Source: Gemmatimonadota bacterium (GTDB lineage Bacteria > Gemmatimonadota > Gemmatimonadetes > Longimicrobiales > RSA9). From it: DNA of 23,805 nt. Made by a program: the position numbers and the translations under genes. Location: positions 1 to 23,805 of the forward strand of contig JBBDRO010000075.1 of the NCBI GenBank assembly GCA_040905425.1, given 5' to 3'. Shown here in pieces: positions 1 to 6,161 of this stretch. The notes beneath the pieces are model-generated. The model did not search any database and had not been told where the DNA came from. It was given only the letters and a program-made list of their open reading frames with translations. Each line of letters opens with the position of its first letter. Within the stretch, counting starts at the first letter, position 1.

Positions 1-1708
1 TGCTGATCTTGCGCGTTTTGCGGCCCACGTCCAGCACCGAGCCGTCCGCGCCGCGCGTGACCGCCACGGTGCTGCAGTCGCAGGTCAGCCTGCGGGCCGT
101 CTCCGCCGCCACCCGCGTGCCGTCGTCCAGGTGGCAGCGCTCTGGCTCCTGCCCCGCCGCGAGCGCCTGCTCCTCGGTGTGCAGCATGACCAGGAAGCGC
201 TCGGCGTTCGGGCTGATGGGGAGGGAGGAGGCCTTCGCGGGGGTCGGGGCCTCAGCGGTCGGGGGCTCGGTGGCCGCCGCCGATGTACCCTTCTGCGCCC
301 CCGTGTCCCATTGGGACATCTCGGCCGAAACGTTTCCGGTGGGCTCGACCGGTGAATTGGCCGCCACTTCCTCGGCCGCCACTTCCTGGTCCGCAACTTC
401 CTCGTCCGTCTCTCCCTTGGCCGCCTCTCCTACCTGCGCCGTCGTGTCCCATTCTGACATCTCGGCCGAAACGTCTCCGAGGGCTTCGGCCTGCTCCGGG
501 GCCCCGGCGTCGGTCTCCGTGTCCCAAACTGACATCTCGGCCGAAACGTCTCGGCGAGCTTCCGGCCCGGCTTCCGCCGCAGCCGCCCCCAGCCCCACCC
601 GCCCGTCCGTCTCCAGGTCACCCGTGCCCGCCGCCTTGGCCCGCTCCACCAGCATGAGCAGCGCGTCCGCCCGCCGCTGCTTGTCCGTCCGCCCGTCCTC
701 CTCACCCCTCTCACCCGTGACCGCCAGCCCGTACGCCTGCAGGGTACGCATCAGCATCAGCCCCTCCGCCGCCGGCAGCCGCGCGCGGAGCTGGACCGTG
801 CCCTCGGCCTCCGTCCAGATCACAACCTCACGCGCCTCCCAGCGGAGCCGCGCCAGCTCGCGCTCGTCCCGGGCGTTGTGCAGGCGCCAGCCACGCAGGA
901 AGACCTCCAGCTGGTCACCGCTGTAGGCGTACGCGTACTCGAGCAGCTCCGCCTCGTTCTCCGGCGTGGCCACGCGCGTGAGCGCCCGCACCTGGCTGAA
1001 GCTCAGTTCGCCGCCGGCCATGGCGGCGCTGATCCTGGGCAGCTTCTCCAGCGCCCGCGCCACGCGCACCCGCTCCCGGCAGGCGCCCGTGCTCATGCCG
1101 GTGCGGAAGGCCAGCCAGGCGGCGCAGTTGCGGAAGCCGCAGACCTCCCAGCCCTGGCGCCGGTCGAACTCGGCCAGCTTGACCAGCAGCTGGTACTCGG
1201 CCGCGTGGATGTGGGCGGCGATGGTGGCGATCTCGTTGCCGAGTTCCTCGAGCTCGTCGTTCTCGATGGCTTCGTGGTCGACGGGTTCATGGTCGAGGGC
1301 TTCGTGATCGGACTCCTGCTCCGGGGCCGCCGGATCCTCGACCGGATCGGCATCGGAAGCCGCCGGATCGTCGCGCGTGTCCCATTCTGACATCTCGGCC
1401 GAAACGTTTCTGAGGGGCTTGGCCGCGCCCGAGGCCCCGGCCGCATTCGCGAGGGCGCCGCTCGCCGGGCCCTGGTCCCGCTCCGACGTTTCGGCCGAAA
1501 CGTTTACGAACGCGTCGGCGGCCTCCGGCCCCACCAACACCGCTGCTTCGGGCGCCACTCTCTCCATCGCTACCCCCGCGGCCACCGATTCGTCCGGCTC
1601 GGCTTCATCCGAAATCAGTGTCCGCTCCCGGACCATCCATCCCTGCCCCCGCCGTCCGCTTAGCGCCCTGCGCTCCGCGTAGCTCACACCCTCCGCGCGT
1701 CCACCCAT
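1..1708 (-). CDS. DUF222 (13E12-repeat-like) domain protein, probably with a C-terminal HNH endonuclease; 3' end runs off the window
   Basis: Not in the ORF track because it has no stop in the window; translated by hand. ATG at 1708 follows an AGGAGG RBS and an in-frame TAG just upstream. Contains ELGNEIATIAAHIHAAEYQLLVKLAEFDRRQGW..CAAWLAFRTGMSTGACRERVRVARALEKLPRISAAMAGGELSFSQVRALTRVATPENE and ARRLTCDCSTVAVTRGADGSVLDVGRKTRKIS, which normally precedes the HNH domain in this family. Alternative starts at 1636 and 1567. Confidence 0.85.
   Translation of the reverse strand, partial: MGGRAEGVSYAERRALSGRRGQGWMVRERTLISDEAEPDESVAAGVAMERVAPEAAVLVGPEAADAFVNVSAETSERDQGPASGALANAAGASGAAKPLRNVSAEMSEWDTRDDPAASDADPVEDPAAPEQESDHEALDHEPVDHEAIENDELEELGNEIATIAAHIHAAEYQLLVKLAEFDRRQGWEVCGFRNCAAWLAFRTGMSTGACRERVRVARALEKLPRISAAMAGGELSFSQVRALTRVATPENEAELLEYAYAYSGDQLEVFLRGWRLHNARDERELARLRWEAREVVIWTEAEGTVQLRARLPAAEGLMLMRTLQAYGLAVTGERGEEDGRTDKQRRADALLMLVERAKAAGTGDLETDGRVGLGAAAAEAGPEARRDVSAEMSVWDTETDAGAPEQAEALGDVSAEMSEWDTTAQVGEAAKGETDEEVADQEVAAEEVAANSPVEPTGNVSAEMSQWDTGAQKGTSAAATEPPTAEAPTPAKASSLPISPNAERFLVMLHTEEQALAAGQEPERCHLDDGTRVAAETARRLTCDCSTVAVTRGADGSVLDVGRKTRKIS
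303..1506. repeat. Five dispersed ~34-bp direct repeats (303-336, 444-477, 519-552, 1377-1410, 1473-1506), consensus GTGTCCCATTCTGACATCTCGGCCGAAACGTYTC
   Basis: Read directly. All copies are in the same codon phase and encode (N/D)VSAE(M/T)S in the minus-strand gene. Copy 5 contains the perfect 18-bp palindrome ACGTTTCGGCCGAAACGT (1486-1503). Confidence 0.95.
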
Positions 1709-1992
1709 GCACCCCTCCTATGGCCAGTGGTCCCAACGACTTCTTGTAATATAAGGGGTGGTTTCTCGACTCTCTGGGTGGGCGCACAAGGGCAAATCTC
1801 GGGGGTCCCCATACGTCGAGGCTTCGTCAACGCGGCCATCGCGGTCAGAGACGTCCGCAGCCGTCCCCACTGGGCTTCCCGGAGCAGGTGCGAGAGCATC
1901 CCCACTACGAGTCCAAAAAATCAGTACATGGCAGGATGAGACAATTTCAAAAAACGGGTGGGCCAGTCCACTCAATGAACGACGAACTGGTC

Positions 1993-2062
1993 CCTCGCGC
2001 TAACCTCGCGCTAACCTCGCGCTAACCTCGCGCTAACCTCGCGCTAACCTCGCGCTAACCTC
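1993..2062. repeat. Perfect tandem repeat (CCTCGCGCTAA)x6 plus a partial unit
   Basis: Units start at 1993, 2004, 2015, 2026, 2037 and 2048; intergenic. Confidence 0.97.
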
Positions 2063-2173
2063 CGCGCCCCCGTACCTCACGCGCCTCACGCGCCCCTCCC
2101 CCGCCCACTTCGCCACACCAACCCGCCAACAGCCAATCACCTCGAACCACGAGGGGACAACTCCACACCAATC

Positions 2174-2449
2174 TCACCCGCCCCCCTCCTCCCGCGCGCG
2201 CAGCCGCCCCTCCAGCACGTCCCAGTCCCAGACCCCAGCCTCTCGCCACTGCTTCACATCCTCGTTGAATCCGCGGGTGAGCCGGAGCACGCGCTCATCC
2301 TCCCAGGCCTCATCCCGGGACAGACGATCCGCGGTCTCCTGGTAGGCCTTGTGCGCCGCCGAGCCGAGCGCCTCGCGCGGCTCCAGATGACGGTTCAGGT
2401 CACCGACGTCGCGGCGCAGAACTTCCAGATAATGCTCCCAGGCTGGCAC
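2174..2449 (-). CDS. Small hypothetical protein (~91 aa)
   Basis: GTG at 2449 has GGAGG 6 nt upstream. MPAWEHYLEVLRRDVGDLNRHLEP...WREAGVWDWDVLEGRL has typical coding composition, whereas the upstream extension in the ORF track is low-complexity. Confidence 0.65.
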   Translation of the reverse strand: MPAWEHYLEVLRRDVGDLNRHLEPREALGSAAHKAYQETADRLSRDEAWEDERVLRLTRGFNEDVKQWREAGVWDWDVLEGRLRAREEGGG

Positions 2450-2606
2450 GGGCGGCCTCCATGATGGCGGATTCGCGGTGGCGTGGATCCCGCGCCACTC
2501 CAGCGGCGCGACCCCGCCCGCCCTCCGGGGCGCAAGAGCCTCGCCAGCGCCTGAGCGGCCGGGGCCCGCCCCCCGCGCGGCTAAACGCCCGCCCCACCCA
2601 GCCACG

Positions 2607-2660
2607 CCGATCCCGCCGATCCCACCGATCCCACCGATCCCGCCGATCCCGCCGATCCCG
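2607..2660. repeat. Tandem 9-mer (CCGATCCCR)x6
   Basis: Six consecutive units, each containing GATC, between divergent starts at 2449 (-) and 2850 (+). Confidence 0.95.
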
Positions 2661-2849
2661 GCCCTCCCACCCACCCCGCCCGACCGCTCCGCCCCAACCA
2701 ACCGCCCTTGGACCGTCAGCCCCCACCCCCCTATATTTCCTCCAGCCGCGCCACGCCGCGCACCGGCTGGCGCAATCCGGCGGTTCGCCGCCCCTCAAGC
2801 ACGCAACCGATCCGCAGCCCCGACGGGCTCACTCCACCGGGAGAGATCC

Positions 2850-5800
2850 ATGCACTCCGGTCGCCCCACTATGTCCCCGCGCCGCCGCCTGGCGTTCGCC
2901 CTGCCCTTCCTGGTGCTGGCCGTGGCAGCGCCCACCGCCGCCCAGGAGCCCCCCGACAGCGCGGACGACAAGGAAGAAAACCCCGCCCAGGAGGGCCTCC
3001 CGCTGGAGCCCACCCGCACCATCCGCTTCACCACCACGGAAGGTTCGTGGATGAGCGTGGACATCAGCCCGGACGGGCAGACGCTGGTCTTCGACCTGAT
3101 CGGCGACCTCTACACCATGCCAGTCACCGGCGGCGTAGCCACGCCGCTCACGCGGGGCATGGCGGTAGACGCCCAACCGCGCTTCAGCCCGGACGGCACG
3201 AAGGTGGTCTTCACCTCGGACCGGAGCGGTGGGGAGGGCGTCTGGACCATCGCACTCGATAAGTCCGACACCACCCAGATCACCCGCGGCAAGGAGCAGA
3301 AGTACGACGGCCCCGAGTGGACGCCGGACGGCAACTACATCGTGGTCACGCGCGGCACCAAGCTGCACATGTACCACGTGGACGGCGGCAGCGGGCAGCA
3401 GCTCATCGAGGAGCCCGCCAACCTGCGCACCATGGGTGCGGCCTTCGGCGCGGACGACCGCTGGATCTGGTTCGCGCAGCGCACCGGCTCCTGGCAGTAC
3501 AACACCGCGCTGCCCGACTACCAGCTCGCGGTCTACGACCGGGAGACCGGCGCACGCAGCACCCGCAGCTCGCGCTGGGGCTCCGGCTTCCGTCCCACCC
3601 TCTCGCCCGACGGCAAGTGGCTGGTCTACGGCACGCGCTTCGACCAGCAGACGGGCCTGCGCATCCGGGACCTGGACACCGGCAACGAGCGCTGGCTGGC
3701 CTACCCGGTGCAGCGGGACGACCAGGAGTCGCGCGCCACGCTCGGCGTCTACCCCGGCATGACCTTCACGCCGGACTCGCGGGCGCTCATTGCCTTCTAC
3801 GGCGGCAAGCTCTGGCGCATCAACGTGGAGAGCGGCACCCAGACCGAGATCCCCTTCCAGGCGGAGGTGGTCCAGCACCTGGGCCCGCAGGTGGAGTTCG
3901 ACTATCCCATCGAGGACAGCCCCACCTTCACCGTGCGCCAGATCCGCGAGGCGGTGCCCTCGCCCGACGGCAACCGTCTGGCCTTCATCGCGCTGGACCG
4001 GCTGCACGTGATGGACTATCCCGACGGCCAGCCCCGCCGCGTGGCCGACGCGGGCGTGGTGCAGATGAATCCCAGCTGGTCGCCGGACGGCCAGTGGATT
4101 GCCTACGCCACCTGGAGTGACACGGAGGGTGGGCACGTCTGGCGCGCGCGCGCCGACGGCTCCGGCCAGGCGCAGCGCGTCTCCACCGATCCCGCGCTCT
4201 ACACGGACGTGGTCTGGGCGCCGGCGGAGAACCGCATCGTGGCCACCCGTGGCCCGACCGAGAGCTATGTGGAGGGGGAGAACCGCGGCCCCTCCGACTT
4301 CGTCTGGTTCCCCGCCAACGGCGGCGAGCCCACCGTCATCGCGCCCACCGAGGGGCGCAGCAACGTCCACTTCGTGGAGGGGAGTGACCGCCTCTGGCTG
4401 AGCCGCGGCGGCGGCCGGCTCGTGTCCATGCGCTGGGACGGTCTGGACGAGAAGGCGCACGTGCGCGCACAGGGCGGCGGCTCGGTGACCATGGCGCCGC
4501 GCGGCGACCAGGCGCTCACCACCTCCGGCAACCAGGTGTGGGTTTTCACCGTGCCCTACATCGGCGGGGCGGAGCCCCCCACGGTGAACCTGGAGAGCGC
4601 CAACTTCCCCGCCGAGCAGCTGAGCGAGATCGGGGGCCAGTTCGCCACCTGGGGTCGCGACGGCCGCAAAGTGCACTGGTCCATCGGCAACGCCCACGTG
4701 ATCTACGACCTGGACCGCGCCAAGGCATTCACGGACAGCCTGGAGGCCGCGGGAGAGCTGGAGCCCGAAGAGGAGCCCGCCGACACCGCGGACGCCCCCC
4801 CCGACTCGGCGGACGCGCCCCCCCGGCGCCGCGACCGGGACACACCCAAGTTCCAGCCCGACGAGACCCGCATCATCATCAGCGCCGAGCGGGACATCCC
4901 GCGGGGCGCGGCCGTGCTGCGCGGCGCGCGCGTCATCACCATGGGCCCGCGCGGCGTAATCGAGCGCGGGGACATCGTGGTGCAGGACAACCGTATCACC
5001 GCCGTAGGCCCCACCGGCCAGGTCCAGGTGCCCGACGGCGCGCGGGAGATCGACATGAGCGGGCGCACCATCGTACCCGGCTTCGTGGATACGCACGCGC
5101 ACCTACGCGCGCGGGGCGTGCACCGCACCCAGAGCTGGTCCTACGTGGCCAACCTGGCCTACGGCGTCACCACCACGCGCGACCCCCAGACCGGCACCAC
5201 CGACGTGCTCGACTACGAGGATCTGGTCAGGGCCGGGGAGGTGCTCGGCCCACGCATCTACAGCACCGGCCCGGGCGTCTTCAGCTCCGAGGACATCGAG
5301 GACCTGGACCACGCGCGCGAGGTGCTCAAACGCTACAGCGAGTACTACGACACCAAGACCATCAAGCAGTACGTAGCCGGCAACCGCGAGCAGCGCCAGT
5401 GGATCATCCAGGCGGCCAACGAGCAGCGCCTCATGCCCACCACGGAGGGCTCGCTGGACGCCGAGATGAGCCTCACCGAGGCCATCGACGGCTACAGCGG
5501 CCACGAGCACTCGTGGACCACCTTCCCCATGCACTCGGACCTCATCCGCTTTTACGCGGAGAGCGGCATTGTCTACACGCCCACCATCCTGGTGGCGTAC
5601 GGCGGGCCGTGGGCGGAGAACTACTTCTACGCCACCGAGGACGTGCACGATGACATGAAGCTGCGCCACTTCACGCCGCACGCGGAGATCGACAGCAAGA
5701 CCCTCCGTCGGAGCGCGGGCTGGTTCGCCGCCGAGGAGCACGTCTTCCCGCTCATCGGTGAGACGGTCAAGGACCTCGTGGAGGCGGGCGGGCGCGCGGG

Positions 5801-6161
5801 CGTGGGCAGCCACGGGCAGCTCCAGGGCCTGGGCTGGCACTGGGAGCTCTGGGCCATGGCCTCGGGCGGCCTCGATCCCATGGACGCCATGAAGGTGGCC
5901 ACCATCTTCGGCGCTGCGGCCATCGGTCTGGATCAGGACCTGGGCAGCATCGAGGCGGGCAAGCTGGCCGACCTGGTGGTGCTGGACGCCAATCCGCTGG
6001 AGAACGTCCGCAACTCCAACACGGTGGCCATGGTCATGAAGAACGGGCGGCTGTATGATGCGGCCACGCTGGCCGAGATCTACCCGCGCCAGACGCCCGC
6101 GCCCATTTTCTACTGGCACCGGGACGAGCCCACGAACGTCCGCGCCGGGATCGGCAACTGA
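2850..6161 (+). CDS. Secreted amidohydrolase-family protein with N-terminal PD40/TolB-like beta-propellers
   Basis: Signal peptide (..RRRLAFALPFLVLAVAAPTAA-Q), repeated SPDG/PD40 motifs, then PGFVDTHAH, YGVTT, TIKQY, GHEH and GSIEAGKLADLVVLDANPL. Start 2850 has a GGGAGAG RBS (2871 also possible); the 2478 start is a Pro-rich overextension. Confidence 0.9.
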   Translation: MHSGRPTMSPRRRLAFALPFLVLAVAAPTAAQEPPDSADDKEENPAQEGLPLEPTRTIRFTTTEGSWMSVDISPDGQTLVFDLIGDLYTMPVTGGVATPLTRGMAVDAQPRFSPDGTKVVFTSDRSGGEGVWTIALDKSDTTQITRGKEQKYDGPEWTPDGNYIVVTRGTKLHMYHVDGGSGQQLIEEPANLRTMGAAFGADDRWIWFAQRTGSWQYNTALPDYQLAVYDRETGARSTRSSRWGSGFRPTLSPDGKWLVYGTRFDQQTGLRIRDLDTGNERWLAYPVQRDDQESRATLGVYPGMTFTPDSRALIAFYGGKLWRINVESGTQTEIPFQAEVVQHLGPQVEFDYPIEDSPTFTVRQIREAVPSPDGNRLAFIALDRLHVMDYPDGQPRRVADAGVVQMNPSWSPDGQWIAYATWSDTEGGHVWRARADGSGQAQRVSTDPALYTDVVWAPAENRIVATRGPTESYVEGENRGPSDFVWFPANGGEPTVIAPTEGRSNVHFVEGSDRLWLSRGGGRLVSMRWDGLDEKAHVRAQGGGSVTMAPRGDQALTTSGNQVWVFTVPYIGGAEPPTVNLESANFPAEQLSEIGGQFATWGRDGRKVHWSIGNAHVIYDLDRAKAFTDSLEAAGELEPEEEPADTADAPPDSADAPPRRRDRDTPKFQPDETRIIISAERDIPRGAAVLRGARVITMGPRGVIERGDIVVQDNRITAVGPTGQVQVPDGAREIDMSGRTIVPGFVDTHAHLRARGVHRTQSWSYVANLAYGVTTTRDPQTGTTDVLDYEDLVRAGEVLGPRIYSTGPGVFSSEDIEDLDHAREVLKRYSEYYDTKTIKQYVAGNREQRQWIIQAANEQRLMPTTEGSLDAEMSLTEAIDGYSGHEHSWTTFPMHSDLIRFYAESGIVYTPTILVAYGGPWAENYFYATEDVHDDMKLRHFTPHAEIDSKTLRRSAGWFAAEEHVFPLIGETVKDLVEAGGRAGVGSHGQLQGLGWHWELWAMASGGLDPMDAMKVATIFGAAAIGLDQDLGSIEAGKLADLVVLDANPLENVRNSNTVAMVMKNGRLYDAATLAEIYPRQTPAPIFYWHRDEPTNVRAGIGN

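Follow-up and report, generated by a model that had tools for sequence, protein, structure and literature searches.

We describe here a short palindromic DNA site that is written, in frame, into genes of the DUF222-HNH family. The site was found in a 23,805-base stretch of a Gemmatimonadota genome (contig JBBDRO010000075.1 of assembly GCA_040905425.1, positions 1 to 23,805 of the forward strand), which was analysed as a whole and is referred to below as the window. In the window, a DUF222 gene on the minus strand (2..1708) contains five 34-bp repeats. We propose that these repeats represent copies of a double-stranded DNA recognition site with the consensus A-C-GTTTC-NGCN-GAAAC-G-T, which the DUF222-HNH family would keep inside and beside its own gene, in frame as V-S-A-E-T. 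Selection acts on the site as DNA, beyond the peptide that it encodes, and the protein and the site vary together among relatives. The sites are probably bound by the gene's own product, in which the DUF222 core would serve as a helix-turn-helix (HTH) DNA-binding domain of the ParB/Noc type, followed by an HNH nuclease. The repeats had been pointed out in an earlier note that was drawn from the letters of the window alone; its observation is confirmed and its interpretation is partly supported, as set out below.

A palindrome constrained as DNA within the gene

The window gene runs past the left edge of the window, and 569 of its codons can be seen in the open reading frame (ORF) listing. Its only Pfam match is DUF222 (PF02720, 66.5 bits at a gathering cut-off of 24.4), which spans residues 158-365 (614..1237, minus strand). 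The earlier note had spoken of a DUF222/HNH gene; DUF222 was matched, but no HNH domain is visible within the window, where the gene is cut off by the edge about 10 residues before the HNH motif of its relatives and its 3′ part lies beyond. The relatives P0003, P0004, and P0006 carry PF01844 HNH, as do most of the matches listed. All five repeats share one frame of the minus-strand ORF and lie upstream of the HNH-coding part. Copy 5 (1486..1503, in a 34-bp repeat that begins at 1472; this and the following positions are strandless) is a perfect 18-bp palindrome, ACGTTTCGGCCGAAACGT, and reads N-V-S-A-E-T in the N-terminal linker (NVSAETS, residue 69). The other four copies contain the imperfect site ACATCTCGGCCGAAACGT, with two identical mismatches, all in one arm of the palindrome: copy 4 at 1390..1407 (repeat 1376-1409; NVSAEMS, residue 101), copy 3 at 532..549 (repeat 518-551; DVSAEMS, residue 387), copy 2 at 457..474 (repeat 443-476; DVSAEMS, residue 412), and copy 1 at 316..333 (repeat 302-335; NVSAEMS, residue 459). 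The difference between copy 5 and the other four, with their altered arm, is thus as the earlier note had given it. Its general term of palindromes holds for copy 5 and not for the four others, and its search pattern GTTTCN4GAAAC finds, within one mismatch, one of the five window copies and misses the rest.

The 13-mer TCGGCCGAAACGT occurs at all five places and nowhere else in the window (expected, 0.01). None of 100 shuffles reached the observed count, which is six matches at five places because the palindromic copy counts on both strands. Both linkers that bear the repeats are acidic (D+E 34 vs. K+R 5 in 127 residues, and 29 vs. 6 in 135 residues); together with the ORF frame and the Pfam boundaries, these charge counts bear out the description of five repeats in one codon phase within acidic linkers that flank the DUF222 core. 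Mean pairwise identity is 0.86 over the 34-nt core (0.92 among copies 1-4) and about 0.47-0.49 over 56 flanking positions, so that conservation of the repeat is sharply bounded.

Relatives of the gene were collected in two ways. A word-limited protein search gave at least 4234 proteins at E ≤ 0.001 among 8000 scored candidates, and the named matches were Gemmatimonadota or Longimicrobiales. A search of a genome collection gave 597 pattern matches, of which 485 were confirmed; the best 80 loci of these 485 were analysed (548,555 bases; 35-56% identity to the window protein). These homolog loci are labelled Gemmatimonadota, Acidobacteriota, and Rokubacteria, with four metagenome-assembled genomes (MAGs) labelled Spirochaetia and one locus labelled Acidimicrobiia. 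The four Spirochaetia-labelled loci (L054, L061, L065, and L069) form one clade with a support of 100, nested among acidobacterial DUF222 genes, which suggests horizontal transfer or a questionable taxonomic label.

Among the 120 protein matches listed, V-S-x-E-x-S is present in 106, nearly always in its canonical context before the HNH domain, and about a quarter have a second copy of the motif in a linker. By canonical site we mean VSAETS within DGTR-VSAETS-RRLxCD, just before the HNH domain. The arms of the palindrome recur at the DNA level: GTTTCNNNNGAAAC occurs 80 times in 58 of the homolog loci. Read in the frame of GTT, all 80 occurrences encode V-S-x-E-T and 72 encode V-S-A-E-T. The centre is CGCG at 45 of the 80 and AGCT at 19, and the other 16 are spread over ten further kinds.

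The codons of the motif are far from free. Across the 72 in-frame instances of VSAET in 58 ORFs, Val is written GTT in 68, as against 9.3% of the Val codons in the rest of these ORFs. For Glu, GAA is used in 59 of 72 (background, 23%), Thr is ACG in 69 of 72 (background, 42%), and Ala is never GCC (0/72; background, 42%). As a control we used the 161 conserved amino-acid columns of the 69 of 80 ORFs with at least 900 nt after the match start. The motif's Val column is 92% GTT, while the 12 other conserved Val columns have at most four GTT per 52-64 codons; the entropy of its Thr column is 0.20 bits, against 0.95-1.83 bits in other conserved Thr columns. The entropy of the codons that directly follow the motif (S, R, R, L) is normal, and they are as free as elsewhere. 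Of 53 canonical sites, 52 have C at position 0 and all 53 have G at position 15. Since the motif codons are fixed and their neighbours free, the constraint is limited to the 16-bp C-GTTTC-NGCN-GAAAC-G. The earlier note had proposed selection on the DNA, suggested a check of synonymous sites across homologs, and named freely varying VSAE codons as what would speak against it; the codons of the homologs are not free, and copies also occur outside DUF222 frames (see below).

For the window alone, another explanation of the repeats starts from the protein: the four VSAEMSxWDT copies would be a peptide short linear motif spread by recent intragenic duplication, with identity of the DNA as a by-product. 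Copies 2 and 4 are 85% identical over 66 nt, the linkers hold 15-bp tandem repeats as well, and the four copies in question are not palindromic. In addition, the residues M, W, D, and T are not covered by the family palindrome and are nevertheless conserved in P0001 and P0002; among the matches listed, the two nearest relatives (70% and 77% identity) contain VSAEMSxWD three and four times. We nonetheless regard this explanation as quite improbable. Identities of 0.92 in the core and 0.49 in the flanks speak against very recent duplication; all five copies retain GTT, a rare codon, for Val; copy 5 is a perfect 18-bp palindrome; and the family-wide constraint on the DNA falls on the same bases. 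The two 15-bp tandem repeats of the linkers (359-425, 4.5 copies; 1263-1310, 3.2 copies; 78% matches) indicate that linker growth by slippage does not depend on the palindromes.

At the family's canonical position, the window gene reads VAAET (98..112, minus strand), written GTGGCGGCGGAGACG, and the palindrome is lost. The canonical site is also missing, with linker copies present, from L054, L061, L065, and L069, and tandem arrays of sites occur in the linkers of L055, L058, L065, and the window gene. Since several relatives have linker copies or arrays, the five copies of the window are an instance of a general habit. As judged from the sequence, the palindrome at the ancestral site beside the HNH-coding part appears to have decayed in the window gene, and the five linker copies appear to stand in for it. 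In a sister subgroup (P0003-P0006), known here as proteins, the canonical VSAET has been lost and reads VTGES or VSGES; the linkers contain four to seven copies of RGSAEP, plus GSDxVLRGSD repeats. G-S-A-E-P is the other pentapeptide around S-A-E with potentially self-complementary codons, and we predict that the RGSAEP repeats are written as a site of the type GGTTC-NGCN-GAACC.

The symmetry of the site extends to bases that the peptide leaves free. Codon positions 1 and 2 of V-S-A-E-T are already self-complementary, and freedom exists only at the wobble positions. The wobble bases of Ser and Ala are complementary in 46 of 53 canonical sites and in 22 of 24 extra sites; among all sites with at most two mismatches the central wobble bases are complementary in 101 of 113, a figure to be read in the light of the fact that this set was chosen by closeness to the palindrome. 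Sites with 0, 1, and 2 mismatches number 71, 26, and 16, compared with 0, 0, and 1.2 in shuffled sequence. There are four types of centre, CGCG, AGCT, and TGCA, plus GGCC in the window; mixed centres are rare, and the type changes about ten times on a tree of 43 rows. Arms, too, can change symmetrically. The change to GTCTC...GAGAC is synonymous; GTTGC...GCAAC, in the form GTTGCCGCGGCAAC, encodes VAAAT (L021, twice); and GTTCC...GGAAC, in the form GTTCCCGCGGGAAC, encodes VPAGT (L013; a copy in L056 lies outside the ORF). Some variants, then, preserve the palindrome at the peptide's expense. As a separate observation, the nearly identical same-genome paralogs L048 and L052, on terminal branches of length 0.03, have canonical centres of CGCG and TGCA, respectively; both central wobble bases differ with complementarity kept, and a third difference lies in the arm.

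Symmetric changes of the arms are also what stem pairing would lead one to expect, and the palindrome might act by folding, into a hairpin in mRNA or into a hairpin or cruciform when DNA is single-stranded, instead of as a duplex site for a dimer. In line with this, both mismatches of the four imperfect window copies become G·U pairs in the sense RNA, and a stem of 7-8 bp is predicted. Several observations make a hairpin improbable all the same. NGCN would form the loop and therefore needs no complementarity, yet complementarity runs straight through it. The arm sequence is near-invariant across phyla, with no compensatory drift, and one-sided transitions give G·U 17 times and A·C 15 times in the sense strand. 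Predicted hairpins are no stabler than shuffles (z from −1.64 to +0.16), and no Rfam family was matched in a scan of positions 1-2600 at E ≤ 1.

The DUF222 core as a candidate reader of the site

An AlphaFold model of the DUF222 core (599-1261) has a mean predicted local distance difference test score (pLDDT) of 89.4. In a fold search, its sole matches above noise in the PDB are DNA-binding domains of Noc and ParB: 7ol9_A (probability 1.00, root-mean-square deviation 2.7 Å over 108 columns), 6y93_A (probability 1.00, TM-score 0.65 on the target, 1.9 Å over 84 columns), and 1vz0_B, 7o0n_A, 7bnk_A, 7bnr_B, 4umk_D, 7ng0, and 6s6h_A (probabilities of 0.82-0.98). The remaining matches are membrane receptors at about 25 Å. 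With the full-length relative P0037 this ParB/Noc set recurred, and the HNH part of P0037 matched McrA, TagI, and IscB. By the fold search, a BLASTP alignment, and a weak hhalign match, the predicted ParB/Noc-type HTH region covers residues 176-244 (977..1183, minus strand). A sequence-profile search of solved structures matched the HNH region only (IscB, McrA) and gave no ParB, and the ESM Atlas had no usable match. The N-terminal ParB/Srx CTP-binding domain, ParB_N, gave no match, and the core is preceded by an acidic linker. A ParB box, sought by regular expression in all loci, gave two spurious matches only and was discarded.

The modelled homodimer scored 0.64, and the best of three controls scored 0.00. 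In the tool's calibration the dimer mark was reached by 20 of 30 solved one-chain pairs and by 1 of 23 solved single chains, counts that are only rough here since our own alignment was supplied. Contact agreement between the dimer runs was at least 57%, and the pLDDT of the partner was at least 65. As a symmetric dimer, each subunit would therefore read one CGTTTCNG half-site.

The centre of the site is tracked by residues of the core. In 50 loci the centre of the canonical site is C·G or A·T. Among these, the residue at alignment column 218, the A/T of ...GxT[A/T]AQLE..., is Ala for 36 of the 38 C·G centres and Thr for 10 of the 12 A·T centres. The association, seen in at least three clades, recurs in the acidobacterial singleton L035, in the clade of L063 and L075, and in a 19-member Gemmatimonadota clade; the last is mostly A·T, and its C·G-centred members L003 and L021 carry Ala, as does L002 with the mixed centre CGCT. 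At a second column, 157, where the putative recognition helix begins, Thr or Pro is confined to A·T loci, apart from L040. The window combines its unique GGCC centre (G·C) with Gly at column 218 (residue 264; codon 917..919, minus strand). The equivalent residues of P0037 (95 and 149-151) fall in the predicted dimer interface, near the two-fold axis, which is where one would expect the central bases of the site. A parallel comes from the accessible text of PMC7383237, according to which parS and the Noc-binding site (NBS) are told apart by half-site positions 1 and 6 alone; among the DUF222 sites, the variable base is that of position 6. The suggestion in the earlier note that the repeats could be the gene's own binding or target sites gains support from these three lines: the ParB/Noc-type fold, the predicted symmetric dimer, and the residue that tracks the centre.

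Distribution of the sites and their possible roles

The sites follow the gene closely. Of 74 GTTTCNGCNGAAAC sites in the homolog loci, 59 are in frame within the main DUF222 ORF and 15 are not. Two of these 15 are the canonical sites of a second (L008) or a frameshifted (L027) DUF222 gene, leaving thirteen copies that fall in no DUF222 reading frame. Nine of the 15, with the extended form cACGTTTCCGCGGAAACGTc, lie within 500 bp of the ORF and in no DUF222 frame. Sites in the near flanks precede the ORF start by 44-469 bp in seven loci; in three loci they follow the stop codon, at distances of 9, 13, and 146 bp, and L022 has an additional one-mismatch copy 13 bp past the stop. Density drops steeply from the ORF to the near flanks and again to the far flanks, where some 359 kb contain about five sites at a distance of over 500 bp from a DUF222 ORF, one of them in a second DUF222 gene and one an in-frame copy in another gene. 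Isolated half-sites are not enriched in ORFs or flanks of the homolog loci, and iteron-like half-site arrays were accordingly rejected as a general feature.

Two side observations concern non-coding copies. In L019 (about 3326-3390), a short tandem array, tctcgcgtttcgcctccggcgg, closes with the upstream palindrome as its final unit, and every unit of the array contains a CGTTTC half-site, an arrangement seen in this locus only. In two Thermoanaerobaculia MAGs, the non-coding palindromes at L022 2659 and at L028 5410 and 6671 have about 40 bp of similar flank, ctccacGTTTCCGCGGAAACgtctccg…gatcgtcagggctcc, and this looks like a small dispersed repeat around the site.

We propose that the site is the docking place of the gene product on its own gene. 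A bound dimer would act as an operator or roadblock within the transcribed region and so exert negative feedback, which would limit the output of a potentially toxic nuclease. Such an arrangement would be evolutionarily stable because loss of the site would de-repress the nuclease. In the homolog loci all sites within the ORF are upstream of the HNH-coding part, which supports a feedback role. Furthermore, in 15 inspected pairs of same-genome paralogs, homology comprises the gene and roughly 10-250 bp on each side; since this is little more than the gene, an internal operator would travel with it when it is duplicated or transferred. The regulatory role is more weakly inferred than binding by the own product, and the complete statement, that of a recognition site of the own product with a role in negative feedback, is put forward tentatively.

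The paralogs also lend themselves to a different account, in which the bound sites are points where the HNH nuclease nicks or cuts and thereby starts recombinational copying. The gene would then be a selfish, homing-like cassette that duplicates, undergoes gene conversion with its paralogs, and occasionally seeds the palindrome into neighbouring DNA. The catalytic residues of HNH are invariant in the alignment of 81 of the 120 listed relatives. The family is multi-copy, with paralogs that share only the gene and its short flanks, and homology can end at the site itself: the stretch shared by L022 and L046 ends exactly at the downstream palindrome, and that shared by L048 and L052 ends at a GTTTCC half-site. 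These coincidences were, however, 2 of the 15 pairs chosen for inspection. Sites lie on both sides of the gene in several loci, and the linkers hold tandem arrays. The distant REP13E12 of mycobacteria is among the most frequent gene-conversion loci in the accessible text of PMC13061034. In L030, an S9 prolyl-oligopeptidase gene (159-3344, minus strand) adjoins the DUF222 gene that is nearest to the window's on the tree. This S9 gene contains GTTTCCGCAGAAAC in frame at 2251-2264, reading NVSAETS, in a lineage-specific loop insertion of about 40 residues that is missing from a 69%-identical homolog. It is the single case of a site in another gene; among 120 listed matches of S9 peptidase homologs, the motif occurs in L030 only. 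If the element carries a cut site of its own, that copy becomes the recipient in conversion, so that quick loss would be expected, and classical homing sites are absent from the element itself. Half-sites, possible remnants of breakage and rejoining, are not enriched. On balance we consider this account rather unlikely. A broader version, still somewhat less probable in our view, would make DUF222-HNH a class of self-contained selfish cassettes: a ParB-type reader and an HNH cutter, with in-codon parS-like sites as ends or entry sites, that copy themselves, convert paralogs, sow in-frame palindromes (V-S-A-E-T and, in the sister clade, probably G-S-A-E-P) into the linkers of their own and of adjacent genes, and let reader and site diversify together into specificity groups (CGCG, AGCT, GGCC, TGCA).

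Binding by the own product, with or without feedback, remains the reading that we favour, and several points weigh against one part of it or another. Two concern the feedback role: a conserved HNH active site points to some DNA target, for which this same site is the sole candidate known, and sites just past the stop codon (L034, +9; L046, +13; L022, +13) are ill-suited to a roadblock on the gene itself. In the window, four of five copies are two-mismatch sites and bear the lineage-specific MSxWDT extension, which is conserved in close relatives, and these four may have a role at the level of the peptide. Deviations from the consensus are one-sided in 44 cases and symmetric in 7. Independent pairs of changes between the two wobble bases number two on well-supported branches and five on all branches, which leaves the test without power. 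The same is true of residue and centre, with two pairs on well-supported branches (five on all); these two run in the same direction in 1.8 of 2 and never in the opposite one. The ParB/Noc fold matches have E values of 0.059-0.65, none reaching 0.001, and Pfam HTH_ParB does not match the DUF222 protein even at E ≤ 10. When hhalign was run against an alignment of ParB proteins (30 of 120 matches of a ParB search), it gave E = 0.015 at a probability of 2.9% over 45 columns. BLASTP against a plasmid ParB (29/79 identical) falls exactly on the latter's Pfam HTH_ParB domain, with E = 5e-7 as a single comparison, a value that is inflated because the pair was picked from a tblastn hit of E = 3. As to generality, a tblastn search of plasmids with a full-length relative returned two records only, from Rhodococcus and Arthrobacter; the Arthrobacter stretch yielded nothing, the Rhodococcus plasmid has no annotated ParB, and its actinobacterial DUF222 gene lacks the VSAET motif. 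The motif is a trait of a subfamily and not of all DUF222 genes.

Other features of the window have no evident bearing on the site. The second inverted repeat that the earlier note had seen in copy 1, TGTCCCATTGGGACA, is present at 304-318, precedes the copy 1 site, and occurs in that copy only; it is made by the Gln codon of copy 1 and is best taken as incidental. A 10-bp palindrome, GAAACGTTTC (327-336), overlaps the same site. A plus-strand ORF (3..926, 307 codons) was rejected as a gene, being a GC-rich antisense mirror that reads DISAETF or DISAETS at the three repeats it crosses because the sites are near-palindromic. About 285 bp upstream of the DUF222 start codon, the intergenic stretch 1993-2067 holds an 11-bp tandem repeat, CCTCGCGCTAA (6.7 copies, 98% matches), with no evident tie to the palindromes. 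At 2593-2680, a 9-bp tandem repeat, CGCCGATCC (6.2 copies), lies in the 5′ end of ORF 2478-6161, which encodes a PD40 beta-propeller plus amidohydrolase; the repeat is translated as PIPPIPPIP in this ORF and as GIGGIGGIG in an overlapping minus-strand ORF. Scans of 1-2600 for promoter and terminator consensus sequences found none, NCBIfam gave nothing meaningful, and PADLOC matched no family.

The neighbourhood bears on a last explanation, raised in the earlier note, that the sites are centromere-like parS sites for the chromosomal ParB of the host. Bacterial parS has GTTTC and GAAAC arms around an ACGT centre. The arms GTTTC/GAAAC are indeed those of parS, as copy 5 illustrates, and the A·T-centre variant of relatives differs from parS in the central two bases only. 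The description as parS-like therefore holds for the arms and fails for the centre, which in the family is NGCN; the window's GGCC differs from ACGT at four positions. The parS pattern GTTNCACGTGAAAC has no match within two mismatches in the window, and GTTNCACGTGNAAC has no exact match in 84 loci. The sites follow DUF222 genes and not a chromosomal region, and their centres differ by lineage, varying with a DUF222 residue. The window's Pfam-annotated neighbours are the PD40/amidohydrolase protein, a sortilin/BNR protein, GCS2, a superoxide dismutase, DUF1501, and DUF1800, with no ParA, ParB, or origin marker among the window genes by Pfam annotation. A centromere function for the host ParB is thus highly improbable, and this part of the earlier interpretation has no support.

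Comparison with known systems

DUF222-HNH proteins number in the thousands and include the REP13E12 repeats of mycobacteria. The literature that we searched, also with regard to REP13E12 and 13E12/HNH, describes no function or DNA target of DUF222, and no description of the motif strings or peptide was found there, subscription journals lying outside the search. For this family the present analysis offers a concrete target sequence, a candidate reading domain of the ParB/Noc type, and candidate specificity residues. It would also provide an unusually clean case of a predicted protein-binding site that constrains synonymous codons, and even amino acids, across several phyla, and possibly a natural experiment in which ParB-type readers and their palindromes change specificity together.

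The closest likeness is to ParB-parS and Noc-NBS. The first parS of Bacillus subtilis is reported to lie inside the coding sequence of spo0J (parB), a point that our literature search did not confirm and that would set a precedent for a site within the gene of its own reader. As in those systems, the DUF222 site is a perfect palindrome of 14-16 bp with arms of the GTTTC/GAAAC type and is predicted to be read by an HTH in two-fold symmetry, and the model of the core matches their DNA-binding domains. As with parS and NBS, the difference in specificity falls on half-site position 6, and G1 and A6 of the parS half-site are confirmed in the accessible text of the same study (PMC7383237). On the other hand, the DUF222 protein lacks the ParB_N CTP-binding domain and a Pfam HTH_ParB match, its family ends in an HNH nuclease at the C-terminus, and its site has an NGCN centre, not ACGT or CCGG. 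The DUF222 sites follow their own gene, not the origin region, and in the window no ParA is nearby. The window protein would work in the manner of a ParB/Noc/KorB-type reader and its palindrome; by the tests made, with no ParB_N, no HMM match, no ParA neighbour, and another centre, it would not count as a member of the ParB family.

For the proposed feedback, KorB may serve as a model. It is a ParB-family HTH repressor that acts on short perfect palindromes, some of them far from promoters. Unlike the DUF222-HNH proteins, KorB is not known to have a nuclease domain or operators written in frame in its own codons. Free-standing HNH homing endonucleases share with the present family a sequence-specific HNH gene that behaves as a selfish multi-copy unit. 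Their homing site is destroyed or absent in the allele that bears the element, whereas here it is conserved inside the gene, and because the site is retained in this way (59/74 in frame) the DUF222-HNH gene is not a classical homing endonuclease.

Palindromic repeats inside or beside genes are known from other elements as well. Rickettsia palindromic elements (RPE) can sit in frame within genes, and in REP/RAYT systems palindromic repeats flank the gene of the nuclease that handles them. The core described here is only 16-18 bp and is nearly confined to one gene family and its immediate flanks, with a single insertion into an unrelated gene (L030) among 80 loci, and the enzyme is an HTH-HNH protein, not an HUH transposase as in REP/RAYT. 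The system appears to be neither REP/RAYT nor RPE. REP13E12 of mycobacteria belongs to the same Pfam family, DUF222, with HNH, and likewise forms a multi-copy, gene-sized repeat unit. The one actinobacterial DUF222 gene that was read, on the Rhodococcus plasmid, is without the VSAET palindrome. In the accessible text of PMC13061034, REP13E12 genes are hotspots of gene conversion, with 87 events in 10 of 14 genes, and the comparison with REP13E12 draws on PMC10589994 as well.

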